NCBI RefSeq assembly: GCF_013122565.1
Contig: NZ_CP053258.1
Strand: one strand, 5' to 3'
Length of the DNA: 64,000 nucleotides
From: Escherichia coli
GTDB taxonomy: Bacteria > Pseudomonadota > Gammaproteobacteria > Enterobacterales > Enterobacteriaceae
Positions 3,942 through 32,539 of this stretch are shown here, piece after piece. Below the pieces are notes generated by a model, which saw only the letters and a list, made by a program, of their open reading frames with translations, ran no database searches and had not been told where the DNA came from. The position numbers were made by a program, and so were the translations under genes. Within the stretch, counting starts at the first letter, position 1. Each line of letters starts with the position of its first letter.

Positions 3942-4979
3942 TTAATCATCACCCGCCACGCGGATCACCACTTTGCCGAAGTTTTTACCCTTCAGCAGGC
4001 CGATAAACGTCTGTGGCGCATTCTCTAAACCGTCAGTAATTTCTTCGCGGTAGTGGATTTTATCCTCTTTCACCCATTGCCCCATCTCCTTCTGAAACTC
4101 ATGGATGCGGTGACCATAATCCTGAGCAATAATAAACCCTTGCAAGCGAATACGTTTTTTCAGCACCGTAGCCATCAACAAAGGTAATCGATCCGGACCG
4201 GGTGGTAGCTCTGTAGCGTTATAGCTGCTCACTAAGCCGCAGACGGGAATGCGCGCAGATGTATTAAGTAACGGTAGCACCGCATCAAATACCTTACCGC
4301 CCACGTTTTCATAATAGATATCAATACCTTTTGGGCACGCTTTCGCCAGTTGATCGGCAAAATCATCCGCGTGGTGATCAAGACAAACATCGAAGCCCAG
4401 CACCTCGGTAGCATGGCGGCATTTTTCCGCGCCACCGGCAACCCCCACCACCCTGCAACCTTTAAGTTTGCCGATTTGCCCCACCGTTGCTCCCACAGGA
4501 CCTGTCGCCGCCGCAACCACCAGCGTTTCGCCCTCTTTAGGCTGACCGATATCCAGCAGGCCCATATAAGCGGTAAAGCCTGGCATCCCCAGCACACCTA
4601 GCGACCACGATGGATTTTGCGGATGATCGCCAAGTTTCACCAGTTCATCACCATTGGATATGTCATAGTCCTGCCATCCACTGTAGCCCAGCACCCAGTC
4701 GCCAGGCTGATAATCAGGATGATTCGACTCCACGACACGGCTCACCGTACCGCCGACCATCACGCCGCCAATATCAACCGGCGGTGAATAAGATGGCTCA
4801 TCGCTCATACGTCCACGCATATACGGGTCCAGTGACAAATAAACTGTGCGCAGTAACACCTGTCCTTCACCCGGTGTGGCGACATCATCTTCTTCAAGAC
4901 GGAAATTCTCCGGAACCGGCGCGCCATGCGGACGCGAGGCCAGAACCCAACGGCGGTTACGCTGCTTTTGTTGCCCCAT
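3942..4979 (-). CDS. curA: NADPH-dependent curcumin/dihydrocurcumin reductase (zinc-independent MDR family)
   Basis: ORF 3942..5072 trimmed to the MGQQKQRNRRWVLASRPHGAP start (345 aa); Rossmann motif AAATGPVGATVGQIGK. Confidence 0.85.
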   Translation of the reverse strand: MGQQKQRNRRWVLASRPHGAPVPENFRLEEDDVATPGEGQVLLRTVYLSLDPYMRGRMSDEPSYSPPVDIGGVMVGGTVSRVVESNHPDYQPGDWVLGYSGWQDYDISNGDELVKLGDHPQNPSWSLGVLGMPGFTAYMGLLDIGQPKEGETLVVAAATGPVGATVGQIGKLKGCRVVGVAGGAEKCRHATEVLGFDVCLDHHADDFADQLAKACPKGIDIYYENVGGKVFDAVLPLLNTSARIPVCGLVSSYNATELPPGPDRLPLLMATVLKKRIRLQGFIIAQDYGHRIHEFQKEMGQWVKEDKIHYREEITDGLENAPQTFIGLLKGKNFGKVVIRVAGDD

Positions 4980-5159
4980 AATGCTCTCCTGTGCTTTTGG
5001 CATGAATCCATCAATAGTAGCAGGCTCGCAGGATTGGTTTTGTTTGCAGCCGTCACATCCCCTCTGCAACACGCAATAATTTCATCGAGGAATCCGTTGC
5101 TTCGGGCTGTTTTCGATAGTATTGATAACATCATCATCATTATTTTATCGAGGCCAGAC

Positions 5160-5678
5160 ATGTCCATCCGTTTTGCCCGCAAAGCCGATTGCGCTGCTAT
5201 TGCGGAAATTTTTAACCACGCCGTGTTGTATACGGCGGCTATCTGGAATGACCAAACGGTGGATGCAGATAACCGCATTGCCTGGTTTGAAGCGCGGACC
5301 ATAGCAGGTTATCCGGTGCTGGTAAGTGAAGAAGATGGCGTAGTGACGGGATATGCCTCGTTTGGCGACTGGCGTAGTTTCGATGGTTTTCGCCATACCG
5401 TGGAACATTCGGTTTATGTCCATCCCGATCATCAGGGCAAAGGTCTGGGGCGTAAATTGTTAAGCCGATTGATTGATGAAGCGCGGGATTGCGGGAAGCA
5501 TGTCATGGTCGCCGGGATCGAATCGCAAAACCAGGCCTCGCTGCATCTGCACCAGTCGCTGGGATTTGTCATCACCGCACAAATGCCGCAGGTAGGCACT
5601 AAATTTGGTCGTTGGCTGGATCTGACATTTATGCAGTTGCAACTCGACGAACGCACTGAACCGGACGCGATTGGATGA
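5160..5678 (+). CDS. mnaT: GNAT family L-amino acid N-acyltransferase MnaT (YncA)
   Basis: Internal start MSIRFARKADCAAIAEIF within ORF 4926..5678 gives 172 aa; GNAT acetyl-CoA motif region QGKGLGRKLL; divergent from curA. Confidence 0.85.
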   Translation: MSIRFARKADCAAIAEIFNHAVLYTAAIWNDQTVDADNRIAWFEARTIAGYPVLVSEEDGVVTGYASFGDWRSFDGFRHTVEHSVYVHPDHQGKGLGRKLLSRLIDEARDCGKHVMVAGIESQNQASLHLHQSLGFVITAQMPQVGTKFGRWLDLTFMQLQLDERTEPDAIG

Positions 5679-6124
5679 ATCAGTCGCTCACCCTTGCCTT
5701 TTTGATTGCCGCCGGAATTGGTCTGGTAGTCCAGAACACGCTGATGGTGCGCATCACCCAGACCTCCTCTACCATTCTCATCGCCATGTTGCTGAACTCA
5801 CTGGTGGGGATTGTGCTCTTTGTTTCTATTTTATGGTTTAAACAAGGTATGGCGGGGTTTGGCGAACTGGTGTCCAGCGTGCGCTGGTGGACACTTATAC
5901 CTGGCTTGCTGGGATCGTTTTTTGTCTTCGCCAGTATCAGCGGATATCAGAATGTGGGAGCGGCGACAACTATTGCAGTACTGGTCGCCAGCCAGCTGAT
6001 TGGCGGTCTGGTGCTGGATATCTTCCGCAGTCATGGCGTACCACTACGGGCGTTGTTCGGCCCAATTTGTGGCGCAATTTTACTTGTGGTTGGCGCCTGG
6101 CTGGTGGCCAGACGCTCATTTTAA
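5675..6124 (+). CDS. ydcZ: Inner membrane protein YdcZ (DMT-like, DUF606)
   Basis: 149-aa strongly hydrophobic ORF; its start overlaps the mnaT stop by 4 nt (ATGA), suggesting translational coupling. Confidence 0.85.
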   Translation: MNQSLTLAFLIAAGIGLVVQNTLMVRITQTSSTILIAMLLNSLVGIVLFVSILWFKQGMAGFGELVSSVRWWTLIPGLLGSFFVFASISGYQNVGAATTIAVLVASQLIGGLVLDIFRSHGVPLRALFGPICGAILLVVGAWLVARRSF

Positions 6125-7003: not shown

Positions 7004-8428
7004 TTAATGTTTAACCATGACGTGGCGGACGACGGTGTAATCCTCCAGCCCATAAAGTGACATATCCTTGCCGTAACCAGAAAGTTTCTGCCCACCGTGC
7101 GGCATTTCACTTACCAGCATGAAATGGGTATTGACCCAGGTACAACCATATTGCAGCCGTGCGCTGACGCGATGCGCCCTGCCCACATCTTTCGTCCATA
7201 CCGAAGATGCAAGTCCGTACTGGCTGTCATTCGCCCAGTTTACCACCTGTTCTTCGTTGTCGAAGAGCGTAACACTCACTACTGGACCAAATACCTCTTT
7301 TTGCACGATGGCATCGTCCTGTAATGCGCCAGCCAGCAGCGTCGGCGCATAGTAATAGCCATTACCCTTGCGCTTTTCACCGCCAGTGATCACTTTGATG
7401 TGCCCTGTCGCTTTCGCCTCTTCTACCGCTTTGCTAACGCGTTCGAGATGCGCCAGCGAGCTTAAAGGTCCAAGCTCCGTAGACTCGTCATCCGGCGCAC
7501 CAGATTTTAACGTTGCCACTGCAGCACCGAGTTTTTCCACCAGCGTATCGTAAATGCCTTTTTGCGCGTAGATCCGACAAGCCGCAGTACAATCCTGTCC
7601 GGCATTGTAATAGCCAAATGTACGTACACCTTCGACCACTGCTTCAATATCCGCATCATCAAAAACAATCACTGGCGCTTTGCCACCAAGTTCCATATGA
7701 GTTCGCTTAATGGACGGCGCGGTATGGCTGATGATGTGCTCGCCGGTGGCGATAGAGCCCGTCAGCGACGCCATCCGCACTTTGGGATGACCGGTCAGCG
7801 GATCGCCCACCGTTTTGCCTCTGCCAAACAGTACGTTAATCACGCCTGCCGGGAAGATATCTTTCGCCAGCTCTGCCAACTTCAACGCGGTCAGCGGGGT
7901 AATTTCTGATGGTTTAAGCACTACGCAGTTCCCTGCCGCCAGCGCCGGAGCCAATTTCCACGCTGCCATCATCAGCGGATAATTCCACGGTGCGATCGAA
8001 GCCACGACCCCCAATGGATCGCGACGGATCATCGAAGTATGACCTTCAAGATATTCACCTGCCGCCAGACCATTCAGACAGCGCGCCGCACCAGCGAAAA
8101 AGCGAAAAACATCGACAATCGCCGGGATTTCATCATTGAATGCACTATGCAGCGGTTTGCCACAATTACGGGATTCCAGTTCGGCAAAAACCTGACCATT
8201 TTCTTCGATAACATCCGCCAGTTTCAGCAGGCATTCCGCACGCGCTTTCGGCGTGGTTTGCCCCCATTCGGCAAATGCTGCATCTGCCGCGCGCACAGCA
8301 GCATCCACCTGCTCTACGGATGCCTCGGCAATCTCCAGTAAAACGTCCCCCGTTGCCGGATTATAAACAGGCTGTTTTTCCCCTTCGCCGCTAACCAGTT
8401 CTCCGTTAATCAGTAACTTATGTTGCAT
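7004..8428 (-). CDS. patD: Gamma-aminobutyraldehyde dehydrogenase (NAD-dependent aldehyde dehydrogenase)
   Basis: 474-aa ORF with aldehyde dehydrogenase motifs (ELGGKAP, catalytic-Cys region [11 protein letters not shown]); last gene of the ydcSTUV-patD cluster. Confidence 0.9.
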
Positions 8429-8449
8429 AGCATATTCCTGTATCAGTGG

Positions 8450-9244
8450 TTATTGACCATTGTCGCCTTCGCGGGTTAGCCACCAGGCCCCCAGGATCGG
8501 CAAGGTTGTTACCAACATAACCAGCAGTGCCACCACGTTGGTTACCGGTACATCACGCGGTCGCCCAAGCTGATTGAGCAACCACAACGGTAACGTTCGT
8601 TCATGACCTGCCGTAAAGGTCGTAACGATGATTTCATCGAACGACAAGGCAAACGCCAGCATTCCTCCTGCCAGTAGCGCCGAACTGAGATTCGGCAACA
8701 CTACGTAGCGGAAGGTTTGCCAGCCATTGGCCCCAAGATCCATTGACGCCTCAACCAGATTCCACGAGGTGCGGCGAAAACGGGCGATGACATTGTTAAA
8801 CACCACCACTACGCAAAAAGTCGCATGACCGACCACGATGGTGAAAAATCCCGGCTCCAGATTGATGGTTTTAAAAGCGGTTAATAGCGCCAGACCAGTG
8901 ACAATGCCCGGCAGCGCAATGGGCAGCAGCAGTAACAGCGAAATGGCGTTTTTGCCGAAAAAGTCTCGTCGCCACAGCGCGGCAGCTGCCAGCGTCCCTA
9001 ACACCAGCGCGATTAATGTCGCCAGCGCTGCCACTTTAAGTGACAGTGTCACTGCATCAAGAATATCACTACGCTGTGCTGCCACGCTAAACCAGCGCAG
9101 CGTCAGGCCTTGCGGTGGAAAACTAAACGCCGCATCTTCAGTGTTAAACGCATAGGCGGCGATAATCAGGATGGGAAAATGTAGGAAAACCACGCCGCCC
9201 CAGGCCGCCAGTTTGAGGAAAAACGGTGCGCGTTCAGAGTGCAT
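8450..9244 (-). CDS. ydcV: ABC transporter permease YdcV (polyamine-type, PotC-like)
   Basis: 264-aa polytopic membrane ORF with the ABC permease EAA-like loop ([20 protein letters not shown]). Confidence 0.85.
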
Positions 9245-23748: not shown

Positions 23749-25404
23749 TTAACTCATCACGCGGTCGTCAACATACTGACGTTTATCCGGCGCTGGCGGG
23801 AAATACTGATACAGCCATGTTTCACTGATAGCGTCCCCCTGACAACGTAGATACATCCGCATATCGACCGGATCAGTGGAGTCCGAAGTCGGATACCAGT
23901 CAAACTGAATACGATAACCATCGATGGGTTCAATATAGAGAATTTCGATTTGCTTCGCTTCCCCACTGGAAAGCGTAATCACCGGCTCAATGCCTTTTGG
24001 CGCGGCAGCTTTCAGATCACCACCAACGAAATCGACGGCAAAACGACGCGCCCATTTTTCGGGATAGTGTTCACCTGGCGCCCAACCTTCCGGGAAACCG
24101 CCCATGCCGGTACGCGTCGCCATAACGCGCGCTAATGGGCAATGAACAGGCGGTTGCGCACTCCAGTACAGACGATACTGGAATGCAAACTCATCACCTG
24201 CTTTTACAGCTTTTTCTGGCTGCCAGAAGCAGACAATGTTATCCAGCGTTTCGCCCGTTGTTGGGATTTCCATCAGGCCGATGGTGCCCTTACCCCACTT
24301 GTTACGCGGTTCCACCCACAGACTTGGGCGTTTGTTATACCAGCCCATAATGTCCTGATAATGGGAGAAATCACGATCCAGTTGCAATAAACCAAACCCT
24401 TTCGGGTTGTTGTCGGTGTAAGCATTGAACTGCAATTTTTGCGGATTATTCAGCGGACGGCAAATCCACTCGCCGTTGCCCCGCCACATGGACAGACGAT
24501 CAGAGTCATGAATTTGCGGATGAATGGTATCGCACATCCGACGTTCATTAGTACCGCAGCTGAACATACTGGTCATCGGCGCAATGCCCAGCTGTTTAAT
24601 GTCTTTGCGCGCATACAGGTGATTTTCCACATCCATAATCACCTGACTTTTCTCACAATGGATAGTGAACTTATAGGCACCAGTAATGCTGGCGCTATCG
24701 AGCAACGCATAAACGGTAAAGGTAGTTGCCCCCGGTTTTACCGTATCAAACCAGAAGGCGGTAAAGTCGGGGAACTCTTCTTTACTGTCGGTGTAAGTGT
24801 CAATCGCCAGGCCGCGGGCCGACAAACCGTATTGATATGTGTCATCAACGGCGCGGAAATAACTCGCTCCGAGGAATGATACTACATCACGGCGCGCCAG
24901 TTCGGGGGCTTTAAACACGCGAAAACCGGCAAAGCCGAGATCGCTTTGCCCTTCTAATTGTTTGGTATCAACACCTGCATCGTTGTATTTGAACAACTCC
25001 GGGCGAAAGTGAATTTCACGCGCCAGATGTGTTGCTGGATCTACAGAAAACATACGAACGCGGCGACGGAATCCCATTCCCATATGGAAGAACTGAGCGT
25101 CCAGTTGACGGTTCTCAACGTTATGCCAGAGCGATTTTTCGGCGTCGTATTGAATACTGTTATAAGCCTGCGGCGTCATTGTCGCCAGCGTGTCAGGTAA
25201 CGGACGAGGCGCACCACGCCACGCTGTTTGCGCTAAGTCGTGCGCCATTGACTGTAGAATGGAGAAGTCAAAACGCTGGGTTTGCCCGTCGGCAATATCA
25301 GAATCTGCCGCGAATGCCGCCTGAGAAAAAAGAGAAGCAATGCCGCTGGTACCGCACACGGCGGCCATAGCCATTGAACCTTTAATAAATCGTCTACGAT
25401 CCAT
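23749..25404 (-). CDS. opgD: Glucans biosynthesis protein D (OpgD/MdoD), Tat-exported
   Basis: 551-aa ORF with a twin-arginine signal peptide ([32 protein letters not shown]). Confidence 0.9.
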
Positions 25405-25628
25405 ACCTGAAAGTGAGTCCTTCTGGTGTTGTGAATGGTCCCGCGCTGGTCGTTTTCAGCGGCAAGAAAGTGCTTATTTATGACCGCTCACTCTAGACAA
25501 TATTTATTAATAATCCAATTGTTGAACTCAGAGAATATGCATAAATCGGCAATTTTTTTATGTCGATGGGATGAGCCTGATTCGTTTGTAAAATCAGGCA
25601 AATTTTTGCAAAGGCGGATGGTCAGAAT

Positions 25629-26972
25629 TTAAAGCAAACCACAGCGACGTTTACTGCGTTCTTCCGCTTCCTGATAAAGCTGGAACTCATCCAAAACCGG
25701 ACAACCCAACGCCTGCTCAAATGCCTCGCGACTGGCATTACCGTGATTGCGTGCCTGCGTTTCATTACCCAGATTTGACTGGAAGATCCCCGCCGCGCTA
25801 ACGGGCAAGAAATCTTCATAGGTAATGGGTTGCGCCGCGACCCATCCACGTTCAATTAAGGGCTGTGGATCGTCTCCGGGATGAATCGCCTGACGATGCG
25901 CCTCACCTGAAGGCGTCAGACGGTACCGGAACCATGCCAGCCCTTGCTGACGCATTAAAAACTCACTGTCAGGAAAAGTGCGGAAGGTTTCCTGTAAATG
26001 CATTTGGTGAGTGAGATTATCCTGCCCGGTTCCAGCGTTACGCAGAAGATCATCATACAGTTGTCGCCCTTTCGGCGTTAATGCCACGCCACGCTGCTCA
26101 ATTTCACCAAAGCGCGCGGTATGCGTGCCCTGTTTCTGCCCCGCAAACAACACCATCTCTTCCAGTGCCTTAAAGCTGGTCTGCCGTAGTAAAATCGGCA
26201 CCTCGCGGCGCGGCGGCCCTTCGATCAGAATTTTGGGTTCAATCCCGCATTCAGGCATCATCGACTGCACCCGGTCAATATCCAGCGTACGTGGCGTCAG
26301 GTGGTTGATATGGCATCCAGGGAAACAGACCACATCAGCAATCAACCGATGTTCGTTGTGCAAGGCGCGATAGGTTTCTTCATCTACCGTTGCTGACTGG
26401 TGCCAACGGAACGTTTCCAGGGCTTCCTGCACAAACTCCTGTGCCTGTGTTTCGTTAAAACCGCCCTGCTGCTCATATTCCTCTAACAGTTGTCGACAAC
26501 GTGGGGTGAAGATATCGCGCTGACGCAGAATCTCCGCCGCTTTCTGGCGCAAAATTTCGTTCTCGATAAGCTCAAGGCGGAGTAAGGAGGTAAAAACGCG
26601 GAAGGGATTACGCGCCAGAGAAGCATCATCAATGGGCCGAAATGCTGTCGAATGTACCGGCACCCCTGCCTGCGAGAGATCGTAATAGCTCACCGGGTAC
26701 ATCCCCATAATGGCAAACATCCGCCGAAGAGTAGCAAGCTCTTGTGCAGTCCCAACGCGAATCGCCCCATGACGTTCAACATTCAGTCGCGCCAGCTCGT
26801 CTGCATTTACCATTTTTTCGTGCAGTTGAGGATTGTTTTCCAGCACAGCCAGATTCACATCAGCTACCAGTTCCAGCAGCGTGCCATATTGCGGAACTTC
26901 TTGCTGGTACATGGCTGACATTGCCTGCGAAAACTGTTCCCGAATCTCATCCGCCGTGATGCTGTTCGCCAT
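25629..26972 (-). CDS. ydcJ: DUF1338 protein YdcJ (HglS-like non-heme iron enzyme family)
   Basis: 447-aa ORF matching YdcJ in length and position, divergent from ydcI. Confidence 0.8.
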   Translation of the reverse strand: MANSITADEIREQFSQAMSAMYQQEVPQYGTLLELVADVNLAVLENNPQLHEKMVNADELARLNVERHGAIRVGTAQELATLRRMFAIMGMYPVSYYDLSQAGVPVHSTAFRPIDDASLARNPFRVFTSLLRLELIENEILRQKAAEILRQRDIFTPRCRQLLEEYEQQGGFNETQAQEFVQEALETFRWHQSATVDEETYRALHNEHRLIADVVCFPGCHINHLTPRTLDIDRVQSMMPECGIEPKILIEGPPRREVPILLRQTSFKALEEMVLFAGQKQGTHTARFGEIEQRGVALTPKGRQLYDDLLRNAGTGQDNLTHQMHLQETFRTFPDSEFLMRQQGLAWFRYRLTPSGEAHRQAIHPGDDPQPLIERGWVAAQPITYEDFLPVSAAGIFQSNLGNETQARNHGNASREAFEQALGCPVLDEFQLYQEAEERSKRRCGLL

Positions 26973-27188
26973 AGTGTCTGCCTCCAGTGGTCAGTAATGT
27001 GGAGTGTAGGTAACCGCATTCACTCTGGCGGGAAGAATTTACAAACTGTGATCTCGCCGCGAAAACATCAATATTATCCATTTTGCTGTAACATAATTGC
27101 TTTAATTGTTAATAATATTTTGCAATCAAGTTATCATAATCAAACAACTCCACTTGTCAGCGACACCGCTTCGTTTTTAACATCGCTT

Positions 27189-28112
27189 ATGGAAAAAAAT
27201 AGTCTGTTTAGTCAGCGCATCCGTTTGCGCCACCTTCATACATTCGTAGCTGTCGCACAACAAGGAACTTTGGGGCGCGCGGCTGAAACCCTTAATTTGA
27301 GTCAACCTGCGCTCTCTAAGACATTGAATGAACTGGAGCAACTGACGGGCGCTCGCTTGTTTGAGCGTGGTCGTCAGGGGGCGCAACTTACCTTACCCGG
27401 CGAACAATTTTTAACGCATGCAGTCAGAGTTCTTGACGCCATCAACACTGCTGGACAGTCGCTTCATCGTAAAGAAGGTCTTAATAATGATGTCGTCAGG
27501 GTTGGTGCACTACCTACTGCGGCACTGGGGATATTACCTTCGGTTATAGGTCAGTTTCATCAGCAACAAAAAGAGACGACCTTGCAAGTTGCGACAATGA
27601 GTAACCCTATGATTCTGGCGGGTTTGAAAACCGGGGAAATCGATATCGGCATTGGTCGGATGTCAGATCCTGAACTGATGACCGGGCTTAATTACGAACT
27701 GCTGTTTCTTGAATCGCTGAAGCTGGTTGTCCGCCCTAATCACCCGCTACTTCAGGAGAACGTAACGCTAAGCCGAGTGCTGGAATGGCCGGTCGTTGTA
27801 TCACCAGAAGGCACTGCACCACGCCAGCATTCAGATGCATTAGTACAGAGCCAGGGATGTAAAATTCCTTCGGGTTGTATCGAAACGCTGTCTGCTTCGC
27901 TATCTCGTCAACTTACGGTTGAATACGACTACGTGTGGTTTGTCCCTTCAGGCGCGGTAAAAGACGACCTGCGTCATGCCACGCTGGTGGCCCTGCCTGT
28001 TCCGGGACATGGTGCAGGCGAACCGATTGGAATACTGACCCGCGTAGATGCGACGTTCTCTTCTGGTTGCCAGTTGATGATTAACGCTATTCGAAAATCA
28101 ATGCCGTTCTGA
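27189..28112 (+). CDS. ydcI: LysR-type transcriptional regulator YdcI
   Basis: ORF 26997..28112 trimmed to the MEKNSLFSQRIRLRHLHTFVAVAQ start (307 aa); LysR HTH (LHTFVAVAQQGTLGRAAETLNLSQPALSKTLNELE). Confidence 0.85.
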   Translation: MEKNSLFSQRIRLRHLHTFVAVAQQGTLGRAAETLNLSQPALSKTLNELEQLTGARLFERGRQGAQLTLPGEQFLTHAVRVLDAINTAGQSLHRKEGLNNDVVRVGALPTAALGILPSVIGQFHQQQKETTLQVATMSNPMILAGLKTGEIDIGIGRMSDPELMTGLNYELLFLESLKLVVRPNHPLLQENVTLSRVLEWPVVVSPEGTAPRQHSDALVQSQGCKIPSGCIETLSASLSRQLTVEYDYVWFVPSGAVKDDLRHATLVALPVPGHGAGEPIGILTRVDATFSSGCQLMINAIRKSMPF

Positions 28113-28149
28113 AAGGTGAAGGGATCTGTCGATCCCTCCTTTAACATTT

Positions 28150-29790
28150 TCACACCGTAGCGAAACTAACTGGTTCACCCGCTCCGCGAGGTTCTGCCAA
28201 CACAGATTGTTTGTTCAGACGGAATACGTCCACCGCCTCAGTTAATCGTGCCGCCTGTTCTTCAAGGGACACCGCCGCCGCTGAGGCCTCTTCTACCAGA
28301 GAAGCATTCTGTTGCGTCACCTTATCCATTTCAGAAATCGCCTGGCTAACCTGCGTTATGCCCCTACTTTGCTCATCCGAGGCGGCGGCAATTTCCTGCA
28401 TGATATGTGTGACACTCGCGACGGCATCAACAATAGTGCTCATGGTTTTCCCGGCCGTTGCCACCTCATCCGATCCCAGGTCAATTAACCTGACTGATTC
28501 ACTGATCAAGCCTTCAATTTCTTTTGCCGCCTGGGCGCTGCGGCTTGCGAGTGTCCGTACTTCGCTGGCGACAACGGCAAATCCACGCCCTTGCTCACCC
28601 GCTCGCGCAGCTTCAACGGCAGCATTCAGTGCCAGAATATTCGTCTGGAAAGCAATACTGTTGATGACGGCGGTGATCTCAGAAATTTTCTTCGAACTCG
28701 TGGAGATAGCGCCCATCGTTTTTACTACACCGGAAACCGTCTGCCCGCCATCGCTGGCTTTAATAGAAGCCTCTTGCGCCAGTTTGCTGGCATAATGCGC
28801 GTTATCCGCATTCTGTTTCACCGTCGCAGTGAGTTGCTCCATGCTGGCGGCAGTTTGTTCGATAGCCGCCGCTTGTTCTTCGGTGCGAGATGACAGGTCC
28901 GCATTGCCAGCTGAAATTTCGCTGGTGCCACGATAAATCTCTTCCGCACCCTGTCGAACAGTCCCTACGGTCATCCCCAGTGAATGCTGCATTTGCTGTA
29001 AATGACGACTTAAGCGACCGATTTCATTACGACCCGCCGGTTCATCCTTCATCGTCAGATCGCCACTAGCGATTTTTTCAATCCGTTGTGCGGCATGTTG
29101 CAGTGGACGAATGACGATCCGACGTAGCACCATAAATGTTATCAGCGTCATGACCAGGGCAAGCACAAACGCACCAATCATGAACATCCCGCCCAGGCGG
29201 GTGCGCTGATGGGCCAGTTCCGCCAGTTGGTTGGCTCTGGTGCTACGTATCTTAACGGCTTTGTTCAAAATATCGGTATAAGCATTATCCAGCGTTCGGA
29301 TCTGCTCACTTTCATGATTGATAATCGCTTCAAACATGCCATTTTTGGCATATTTCAACATAGGTTGCATACCCGTGATATAAGCCTGAAAGCGTTGATT
29401 TAATTCAGTGTCGAGGGCTTCATCAGCAGGTGTTTTCACCGGCCGATTCTGATAAGCACGATAACCTTGCTGCGACTGTTTAATCTCCGATTCGGCTTGC
29501 GCAATATTTCGCTTCATTGCTTCCATTTCCGCAATACGACTCGCAGCGCCGGCCTGAATCATATTGATCCGGGCTGAACGCAAAAAATCTGAACTGTTCG
29601 CTAACCCGGTCTGAATCTCAATCTCCGCAGTAACATCACGCTGATCGCGATCGGCCTGCCAGAGGAAATAGCCAGCCAGGGCTGAACTTAATGCGAATAG
29701 AACTAAGATACCGCCTAGAATGCAGGCAAATAACGGAACCAGCCTGATGTGATGCAAAAAACCTAATCGCTGTGAGGGAGTTGTATTCAT
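28150..29790 (-). CDS. trg: Methyl-accepting chemotaxis protein III (ribose/galactose transducer)
   Basis: 546-aa ORF with two transmembrane segments, a HAMP domain and the highly conserved MCP signalling region ([34 protein letters not shown]). Confidence 0.9.
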
Positions 29791-31537: not shown

Positions 31538-32539
31538 ATGAGTAAAGTTGGTATTAACGGTTTTGGTCGTATCGGTCGACTGGTGTTGCGTCGATTACTT
31601 GAAGTCAAAAGCAACATAGACGTTGTCGCTATTAATGATCTTACTTCCCCAAAAATTCTCGCCTATCTGCTGAAACATGATTCAAACTATGGTCCGTTCC
31701 CCTGGAGCGTTGATTTTACGGAAGATTCACTTATCGTTGATGGGAAAAGTATCGCGGTTTACGCCGAAAAAGAGGCTAAAAATATTCCGTGGAAAGCGAA
31801 AGGTGCAGAAATCATTGTCGAATGTACTGGCTTTTATACCTCCGCCGATAAATCGCAGGCGCATCTTGATGCTGGTGCGAAGAAGGTGTTGATTTCCGCT
31901 CCTGCCGGTGAAATGAAAACCATCGTTTATAACGTTAATGACGACACTCTGGATGGCAACGATACCATTGTTTCCGTGGCGTCATGCACCACTAACTGCC
32001 TTGCGCCGATGGCCAAAGCCTTGCATGACAGTTTCGGGATAGAAGTCGGCACGATGACGACCATTCATGCCTATACTGGCACCCAGTCACTGGTGGATGG
32101 CCCGCGTGGTAAAGATTTACGTGCTTCACGCGCCGCGGCAGAAAATATCATTCCCCACACTACGGGGGCGGCAAAAGCCATTGGTCTGGTGATCCCGGAA
32201 CTGAGCGGCAAACTGAAAGGTCATGCGCAACGCGTGCCGGTGAAAACAGGTTCGGTCACTGAACTGGTATCGATTCTCGGAAAAAAAGTGACTGCCGAAG
32301 AGGTGAATAACGCACTTAAACAAGCAACCACCAATAACGAGTCATTTGGTTATACCGATGAAGAAATAGTCTCTTCCGATATCATTGGCAGCCATTTCGG
32401 TTCGGTGTTTGATGCCACGCAAACGGAAATTACCGCCGTGGGCGATTTACAACTGGTGAAAACGGTCGCCTGGTACGATAACGAATATGGCTTCGTCACG
32501 CAGCTTATTCGCACCCTCGAAAAATTCGCTAAACTCTGA
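31538..32539 (+). CDS. gapC: Glyceraldehyde-3-phosphate dehydrogenase GapC, intact 333-aa reading frame
   Basis: Uninterrupted ORF with the NAD-binding N-terminus ([10 protein letters not shown]) and catalytic motif SCTTNCLAP. Confidence 0.85.

Follow-up and report, generated by a model that had tools for sequence, protein, structure and literature searches.

We studied the divergent gene pair ydcJ and ydcI of Escherichia coli, which occupies positions 25629 to 28112 of a 64,000-nucleotide stretch of contig NZ_CP053258.1 (assembly GCF_013122565.1; hereafter, the window). Both products have been described before. HglS of Pseudomonas putida is an Fe(II)-requiring enzyme that forms a D-isomer product and accepted 2-oxoadipate as its sole substrate among seven 2-oxoacids. 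E. coli YdcJ was found to turn 2-oxoadipate into 2-hydroxyglutarate in vitro by liquid chromatography-mass spectrometry (Thompson et al. 2020, PMC7286885), and its role in E. coli was left open in that work, no route to 2-oxoadipate being known there. YdcI has been portrayed as a pleiotropic regulator of dual action whose targets are pH, acetate and stress genes, and 18 sites were mapped for it by chromatin immunoprecipitation with exonuclease digestion (ChIP-exo; Gao et al. 2018). Loss-of-function alleles of ydcI sweep long-term starvation cultures, iraP being an agreed YdcI target; ydcI mutants are acid-sensitive, YdcI affects gadBC, and a ribosome-profiling paper reported its translational regulation under acid stress; persistence and biofilm phenotypes have been studied for it as well. 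The trigger of YdcI was stated to be unknown (PMC7049120). A ydcI mutation had also been held to cause the hipQ persister phenotype, an attribution contradicted by a 2026 study and not built upon here.

Comparison of this locus with its relatives inclined us, by a modest degree, towards a composite explanation: YdcJ is HglS and has its own promoter, YdcI is an orphaned descendant of the pca activator PcaQ, and the adjacency of the two genes is for the most part a leftover of gene loss. The Enterobacteriaceae ancestor would have carried hglS divergent from a pcaH-pcaG-ydcI array, and the spacer between pcaH and hglS would have held a PcaQ operator, ATAAC-N5-GTTATG. Local targets of the ancestral YdcI would have been pcaHG in the Enterobacteriaceae or a PcaK-like transporter in the Erwiniaceae. 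In E. coli, Salmonella, Citrobacter and many Enterobacter pcaHG would then have been lost and the operator would have decayed; with the loss of pcaHG or the transporter, ydcI would have come to lie beside hglS in E. coli. YdcI of E. coli would now bind the PcaQ-type box at scattered promoters, namely those of gltP, lldP, iraP, dtpA and gltA.

Both genes are core E. coli genes and already known. The locus, flanked in E. coli by opgD and trg, was present in 5417 of 5426 complete E. coli genomes (megablast with window positions 25400-28200), and most current RefSeq records name the first gene hglS. A sequence-only reading of the window had described the genes as a divergent pair, and both open reading frames (ORFs) were found where it placed them: a 447-aa ORF for ydcJ in the negative strand (25629..26972), identified from the ORF list and its Pfam, NCBIfam and PDB matches, and a second ORF ending at 28112 in the positive strand. 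Its distance of 25 bp between the genes has to be replaced by a true spacer of 216 bp (26973-27188), because the figure came from the longest ORF for ydcI (371 aa, start at 26997) and not from the annotated start at 27189. RefSeq strains, the closest one among them, and K-12 have ydcI annotated as 307 aa (MEKNSLF..., 27189..28112), the N-terminus MEKNxLFxQRIRLRHLHTF is kept across about 27 other Enterobacterales, and in most of these the ORF has no further 5' extension. The in-frame upstream extension in the E. coli positive strand (26997..27188) was read as non-coding, since annotation and orthologues start at MEKN and conserved non-coding blocks lie within it.

By every sequence criterion and by published biochemistry YdcJ is HglS, an Fe(II)/O2-dependent 2-oxoadipate dioxygenase/decarboxylase. 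Its assignment to the DUF1338/HglS proteins, proposed before any database search, was borne out by a match over the whole Pfam model HGLS (PF07063; E = 3.2e-161, model positions 1-386 of 386) and by a score of 742.7 bits against the NCBIfam HglS equivalog NF049974 (cutoff 550). YdcJ aligned over its full length with the Shigella YdcJ structure (PDB 2RJB; E = 1e-301, about 99% identical, some five residues differing) and likewise with P. putida HglS (6W1G; E = 2e-157). The His and Glu residues of the metal site, which the sequence-only reading had singled out for comparison with HglS, are present: H68, H224 and E290/E292 align with H70, H226 and E294/E296 of HglS. Among 27 aligned homologues (35-59% identity) H68, H224 and E292 were invariant, E290 was kept in at least 90% and R72 was nearly invariant; this set was drawn from a 50%-cluster search, a direct homologue search having given near-identical E. 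coli proteins only. R72 corresponds to Arg74 of HglS and V391/S392 to Val402/Ser403, and YdcJ shows the motifs ERHGAIRVG and FLPVSAAG. We read the enzyme as an Fe(II) protein with a vicinal-oxygen-chelate (VOC) fold in which O2-driven decarboxylation and hydroxylation convert 2-oxoadipate to D-2-hydroxyglutarate. The view that the YdcJ substrate is unknown was already out of date, the conversion of 2-oxoadipate to 2-hydroxyglutarate having been assayed for the E. coli enzyme itself (PMC7286885).

The description of YdcI as a LysR-type regulator also stood, its best NCBIfam family being PcaQ, a LysR-type activator (TIGR02424). The score of 287.7 bits lies below the cutoff of 303.8 and far above that of the next family (136.6 bits); the orthologues of Kluyvera (299.7 bits) and Pantoea (286.9 bits) also fall under the cutoff. 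In tblastn searches YdcI was 47.5-48.6% identical to annotated PcaQ on Ralstonia plasmids and megaplasmids, where pcaQ is divergent from pcaHG, and about 37% identical to matches on Sinorhizobium replicons that are unannotated in PLSDB. The nearest solved structures were CatM and BenM (E = 1e-28 and 2e-21). Together with the operator comparison (see below), these matches give good support to YdcI as a PcaQ-derived LysR regulator that would recognise ATAAC-N5-GTTAT. The E. coli protein is not classifiable as PcaQ itself, given its score under the equivalog cutoff, the absence of pca genes beside it and the lack of any known ligand.

A scan with the HglS profile, taking one genome per species, gave 80 hglS loci. 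In 27 of the 29 Enterobacterales loci a full-length YdcI orthologue (65-97% identity) was encoded upstream of hglS and divergent from it, and the pairing was found in none of the approximately 50 hglS loci outside this order. The two genes were separated in 10 of the fetched Enterobacterales loci by pcaHG, by a gene of the major facilitator superfamily (MFS) or by ppaC. The pcaH-pcaG genes lay between them on the ydcI strand in Pseudocitrobacter, RIT691, Cedecea sulfonylureivorans, Kluyvera and the separately fetched Klebsiella pneumoniae (loci L009, 4428-5785; L013; L021; L022, 4416-5773; L084, 7466-8823), with family scores of 369.9 bits for pcaH (cutoff 296) and 257.8 bits for pcaG (cutoff 126). 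A PcaK-like aromatic-acid/H+ symporter of the MFS was encoded directly upstream of hglS, on the hglS strand, in Mixta, Pantoea and Erwinia (L028, ~4600-5860; L029, 4593-5933; L031), the Erwinia locus having the symporter and missing ydcI. In Citrobacter the intervening gene encodes a Mn-dependent pyrophosphatase (ppaC). In E. coli, the window included, and in E. albertii, Salmonella and Citrobacter, ydcI had no pca genes beside it. A Pantoea plasmid carries the order pcaH-pcaG-LTTR (LysR-type transcriptional regulator, 50.5% identical to YdcI) within a complete pca cluster.

Some further features of these loci were recorded. On the Pantoea agglomerans plasmid the gene divergent from pcaH-pcaG-LTTR (L083, 3460-5352) encodes a fusion of sugar-phosphate-isomerase and 4-hydroxyphenylpyruvate-dioxygenase-like parts (QuiC-like); it holds the relative position of chromosomal hglS, whose product is also of VOC fold, which may be coincidence. 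The hglS gene of K. pneumoniae strain 176 (L084, 5887-7226) is frameshifted or mis-sequenced, because tblastn returned two overlapping pieces, each in a frame of its own (aa 1-171 and 157-447); no coding sequence is listed for it. A gene for a type-B carboxylesterase/lipase of about 500 aa comes next after hglS, in the same orientation, in most Enterobacteriaceae except Escherichia and Citrobacter (L006-L027 and L076, ~7385-8900), and a pyrroloquinoline quinone (PQQ) dehydrogenase gene of the quinate/shikimate family follows ydcI in Klebsiella and Pseudocitrobacter; these neighbours look like a plant-phenolic utilisation island. In Vreelandella/Halomonas (L045, L046, L048, L053, L056, L057, L060 and L070) hglS lies beside an IclR regulator gene of the PcaR/PobR family (301 bits, cutoff 285), and most of these loci also carry a putative type II 3-dehydroquinate dehydratase gene (aroQ), called from N-terminal sequence.

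The partners of hglS in other orders were of another kind: 2-aminoadipate transaminase (738 bits, cutoff 650), the D-2-hydroxyglutarate dehydrogenase YdiJ (1537 bits, cutoff 1350), AmaB (818 bits, cutoff 730) and an AmaA-like oxidase, often with a GcvA-type LysR regulator. Loci of this kind, with lysine/2-aminoadipate genes on the flanks of hglS, include those of Halomonas and Rhizobium. The transaminase, YdiJ and AmaA/AmaB were absent within 6 kb of hglS in every Enterobacterales locus, their presence not being a strict criterion of the family.

The spacers hold two conserved promoter blocks, Block A next to ydcI and Block B next to hglS (see below). Between them, 122-141 bp upstream of the hglS ATG, a box CATAAY-N5-GTTATG was found in 17 loci with up to two mismatches, as an island of conservation amid otherwise unalignable spacer sequence. 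The box contains the core GGTTATG obtained for P. syringae PcaQ by high-throughput systematic evolution of ligands by exponential enrichment (HT-SELEX) and has the shape of the Sinorhizobium meliloti PcaQ site ATA-N10-TAT; another reading of it, ATAA-N7-TTAT, agrees with the YdcI motif described by Gao. It is perfect in Klebsiella, where it lies 120 bp from the pcaH and hglS start codons alike (the K. pneumoniae pcaH-hglS spacer carries ATAACCCATAGTTATG). Five of the six loci with pcaHG had a perfect box, as against 2 of 25 without these genes (Fisher p = 0.0007, uncorrected for phylogeny). A relic of the pcaH-side element, TGTTAATTTAAAGTGAATTT, persists in Superficieibacter and Enterobacter sp. 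Ag1, both without pcaHG. Because the perfect box tracks pcaHG and the relic survives in their absence, loss of pcaHG followed by decay of the operator is the course of events we propose, and it is the relic in these two genera that argues for a loss rather than a gain of pcaHG.

At published YdcI targets of E. coli the same box was frequent. Allowing one mismatch, it occurred six times in five of six target upstream regions, where 0.17 occurrences were expected, and none of 2000 dinucleotide shuffles reached that count. The gltP upstream region has a perfect box, CATAACAAATGGTTAT, which a second site follows at a distance of 29 bp. The E. coli spacer (26973-27188) had no match to ATAAC-N5-GTTAT, even with two mismatches, and the two one-mismatch matches in the whole window lie outside the spacer and are at chance level. 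A possible degenerate remnant of the box, ATAAT-ATTGAT-GTTTT, is seen in the negative strand at 27062..27077, with a wrong spacing (N6) and a mutated right half. The generic LysR pattern AT-N11-AT had no discriminating power (314 matches against 321 expected across the window), and the inverted repeats of the spacer amounted to a single 8-nt AT-rich pair, AATATTAT/ATAATATT, 34 nt apart and without conservation support. A symmetric variant box, ATAGC-GTTTC-GCTAT, occurs in the ydcI-MFS spacer of Mixta.

Block A (27105..27188, positive strand) is the ydcI promoter and leader. It was kept in all the ydcI-bearing loci and always adjoined ydcI, whether pcaG, ppaC, the MFS gene or hglS lay beyond. 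A promoter scan placed a -35 element TTAATA at 27109-27114 and, after a 17-nt spacer, a -10 element TATCAT at 27132-27137; downstream of the latter are the conserved CTTGTCA and GTTTTTAACAT, and the alignment of the block reads ATGTTAAAAAC, TGACAAG, TTTGATAAC and GCAAAATATTATTAACATTT in this order. RpoD constitutive promoters, this one among them, and an H-NS site have been listed in the ydcI-ydcJ spacer (Shimada 2014). A near-consensus promoter CTGACA-16-TATGAT in the negative strand (27133-27160) faces away from ydcI and overlaps the -10 element of the ydcI promoter (27109-27137, positive strand); its -35 TGACAAG is conserved even where it is aimed into the 3' end of pcaG, and the element could be part of the ydcI leader or a promoter of antisense transcription. 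No recognisable Shine-Dalgarno sequence precedes the ydcI ATG (aacatcgcttATG, 27180-27191), the upstream GTTTTTAACAT being highly conserved.

Block B always adjoined hglS, also where ppaC or the MFS gene lay beyond it. Its motif GATCACA (27047..27053, negative strand) lies 81 nt upstream of the ydcJ ATG. Of the 33 upstream regions of hglS taken from Enterobacterales, 31 had the motif, at a distance of 76-83 nt from the ATG or, in Erwinia, of 98 nt. A fixed distance of 43-44 nt separates it, across 21 genera, from a -10-like element whose E. coli candidate is CCTACACT (27003..27010, negative strand). Relatives have TCTAC(A/G)CT at this position, and 22 of the 33 loci match KCTAYRCT exactly, the E. 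coli element differing at the first base; KCTAYRCT is the sigma-S -10 consensus. The -10-like element had only four matches in both strands of the whole window. GATCACA corresponds exactly to the right-hand half of the CRP consensus, and a full CRP site was rejected since the left half, TGTGA, is not conserved; the claim is for a half-site only. A Shine-Dalgarno sequence GGAGG, read from the sequence and conserved in the alignment, completes the block at 26981..26985 (negative strand). A hairpin sequestering it (CUCCAG...CUGGAGG) was considered and rejected: 72% of cells were paired as against 67.8% in shuffles, 58 of 500 shuffles reached the covariation score, and the E. coli fold was of -6.6 kcal/mol (z = -0.14). 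For the conserved CTACACTCC, a -10 element is a better reading than part of a hairpin.

These features give moderate support to a sigma-S-like promoter of its own for hglS, with a conserved upstream site, and to the lack of canonical-operator control by YdcI in E. coli. The gene would form a separate transcription unit with a promoter block conserved across the Enterobacterales (GATCACA, 43-44 nt, a CTACACT -10 of sigma-S type and GGAGG), probably expressed in stationary phase or carbon starvation and possibly with CRP acting at the GATCACA half-site. On entry to stationary phase in O157, ydcJ was reported to rise 3.64-fold and ydcI 3.35-fold.

Several points weigh against the composite explanation. 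This joint rise of the two genes is one of them, and YdcI binding at the ydcI-ydcJ spacer may be present in the ChIP-exo data. The outer neighbours of the pair vary by genus (at least five on the left and at least three on the right) while the pair persists, and an adjacency that outlives outer breakpoints hints at selection for linkage. One-mismatch boxes stand at a constant distance from hglS in many genera without pcaHG, so the box could serve hglS. YdcI could also use non-canonical sites within either block; in Block B, ATCAC-N5-GTAAA amounts to a box with three mismatches. Boxes of the form ATA-N9-TAT are common to several LysR proteins, for example Nac, and we infer the assignment of this one to YdcI; the sigma-S and CRP readings likewise come from consensus matches and conservation.

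The strongest competitor is a small inducible catabolic unit, in which YdcI would sense the YdcJ substrate or a precursor of it (2-oxoadipate, 2-aminoadipate or a related C6 dicarboxylate) and activate ydcJ from the shared spacer; we consider it unlikely. The divergent pairing, kept in 27 of the 29 Enterobacterales loci despite variable flanks, speaks for it, as does the co-induction of both genes in stationary phase. The ligands of PcaQ, CatM and BenM, the nearest characterised relatives of YdcI, are C6 di- or tricarboxylates with a resemblance to 2-oxoadipate, and the frequent divergence of hglS from a GcvA-type LysR gene outside the Enterobacterales makes LysR control of hglS a recurring theme. 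The spacer, of 216 bp and not 25 bp, lacks in E. coli the box found at published YdcI targets, and 26973-27188 held no ATAAC-N5-GTTAT match to act as the recognition box of a classical divergent LysR pair (a T-N11-A dyad, expected some 65 bp upstream of the promoter it serves); as to the conserved adjacency expected of such a pair, it holds in those 27 loci, with intervening genes in the 10 mentioned above. In the relatives the box is best preserved with pcaHG; its distance upstream of the inferred hglS start is about 90-110 bp, more than is usual for a LysR recognition site, and the hglS promoter block is retained behind ppaC or the MFS gene. The literature texts examined, among which the ChIP-exo peak tables were not included, did not name ydcJ as a YdcI target. 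The sequence-only reading had thought control of the neighbour probable from the arrangement, and that argument is weak: YdcI is PcaQ-like, its cognate neighbours in related genera are pcaHG or the PcaK-like transporter, the box is absent and hglS has a promoter block of its own. A divergent LysR neighbour alone is not evidence of a regulator-target pair.

Still less probable is that hglS is a genuine member of a protocatechuate/quinate (PcaQ-type) gene set in the Enterobacterales, its substrate coming from the catabolism of plant aromatic acids and not from lysine. In this order hglS always stands by a PcaQ-type module, with pcaHG in five genera and the PcaK-like transporter in the Erwiniaceae; the PQQ dehydrogenase and carboxylesterase genes flank the block in Klebsiella and Pseudocitrobacter, and the lysine-pathway partners (2-aminoadipate transaminase, YdiJ, AmaA/B) are missing. 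The PcaR/PobR-type regulator and putative aroQ beside hglS in Vreelandella/Halomonas would agree with it, as a second and independent case of hglS lying by quinate/protocatechuate genes, but the Halomonadaceae loci are one lineage and count as about one independent observation, and co-localisation may be merely inherited. E. coli YdcJ shares the 2-oxoadipate activity of HglS, an enzyme strictly specific for this substrate in P. putida, and no 2-oxoacid that bears a distal carboxylate is known from the 3,4-cleavage of protocatechuate. As part of the same idea, the central box would control both pcaH and hglS in pcaHG-bearing species and E. coli would keep a decayed version; the midway position of the Klebsiella box speaks for it.

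Returning to the relic explanation, the pair as first described is ordinary, with the enzyme assayed, its structure solved and the regulator profiled by ChIP-exo; the comparative result supplies handles on the role of HglS in E. coli and on the signal of YdcI. A defined candidate operator, ATAAC-N5-GTTATG, comes out of the comparison, along with candidate YdcI ligands (carboxymuconates of the protocatechuate pathway and C6 dicarboxylates) and natural test organisms, Klebsiella and Kluyvera, that retain pcaHG beside ydcI. Expression of E. coli ydcJ is predicted to depend on RpoS, perhaps on CRP, rather than on YdcI. It is possible, though doubtful, that YdcI is an orphaned PcaQ that still recognises the PcaQ operator, perhaps still senses carboxymuconates or C6 dicarboxylates, and has been rewired to scattered housekeeping promoters in E. 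coli and Salmonella, with hglS belonging to the same ancestral plant-aromatic module. If true, this would imply that protocatechuate/quinate catabolism is connected metabolically, in a way so far undescribed, with 2-oxoadipate or a related 2-oxoacid. Neither an orphaned PcaQ with a defined operator nor the constant pairing of hglS with protocatechuate/quinate genes was found in the literature searched, and both are offered as leads.

Elsewhere in the window, an intact 333-aa ORF lies in the positive strand at 31538-32539, where PapM-32-1, a strain 99.8% identical, has a 333-aa gap gene (type I glyceraldehyde-3-phosphate dehydrogenase); gapC of K-12 is a pseudogene.

Four described systems can be set beside this locus. 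YdcJ shares with P. putida HglS (PP_5260; 6W1G/6W1H) the family, the metal triad, the Arg74 equivalent, the Val402/Ser403 loop and the in vitro reaction; the P. putida gene differs in sitting with D-lysine/2-aminoadipate catabolic genes and in being induced by lysine and 2-aminoadipate, whereas the E. coli locus has no such partners. The csiD-lhgO-gabDTP operon of E. coli, a sigma-S-dependent and cAMP-CRP-activated route of lysine/glutarate catabolism that yields L-2-hydroxyglutarate, offers a working analogy for ydcJ expression, its promoter being of the stationary-phase and carbon-starvation type and driving a lysine-related enzyme that forms 2-hydroxyglutarate: ydcJ has a sigma-S-like -10, a conserved CRP-like half-site and induction in stationary phase. 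The proteins are non-homologous, RpoS/CRP regulation of ydcJ is a prediction and the HglS product is the D- and not the L-isomer. With CatM and BenM, the cis,cis-muconate sensors of Acinetobacter, YdcI shares the two-domain architecture and a broad clade that senses C6 dicarboxylates; its score there (about 103 bits, cutoff 580) is far under that for PcaQ, and the target genes are others. From PcaQ, the pca activator of Agrobacterium, Sinorhizobium, Ralstonia and Pseudomonas syringae, E. coli YdcI differs in its sub-cutoff score (287.7 against 303.8 bits), the lack of nearby pca genes and the pleiotropic role described for it. PcaQ is nevertheless the top family of YdcI by a margin of 150 bits, at 37-49% identity, the YdcI orthologues of Klebsiella, Kluyvera and others are encoded directly behind pcaHG, and the target box matches the PcaQ core GGTTATG.

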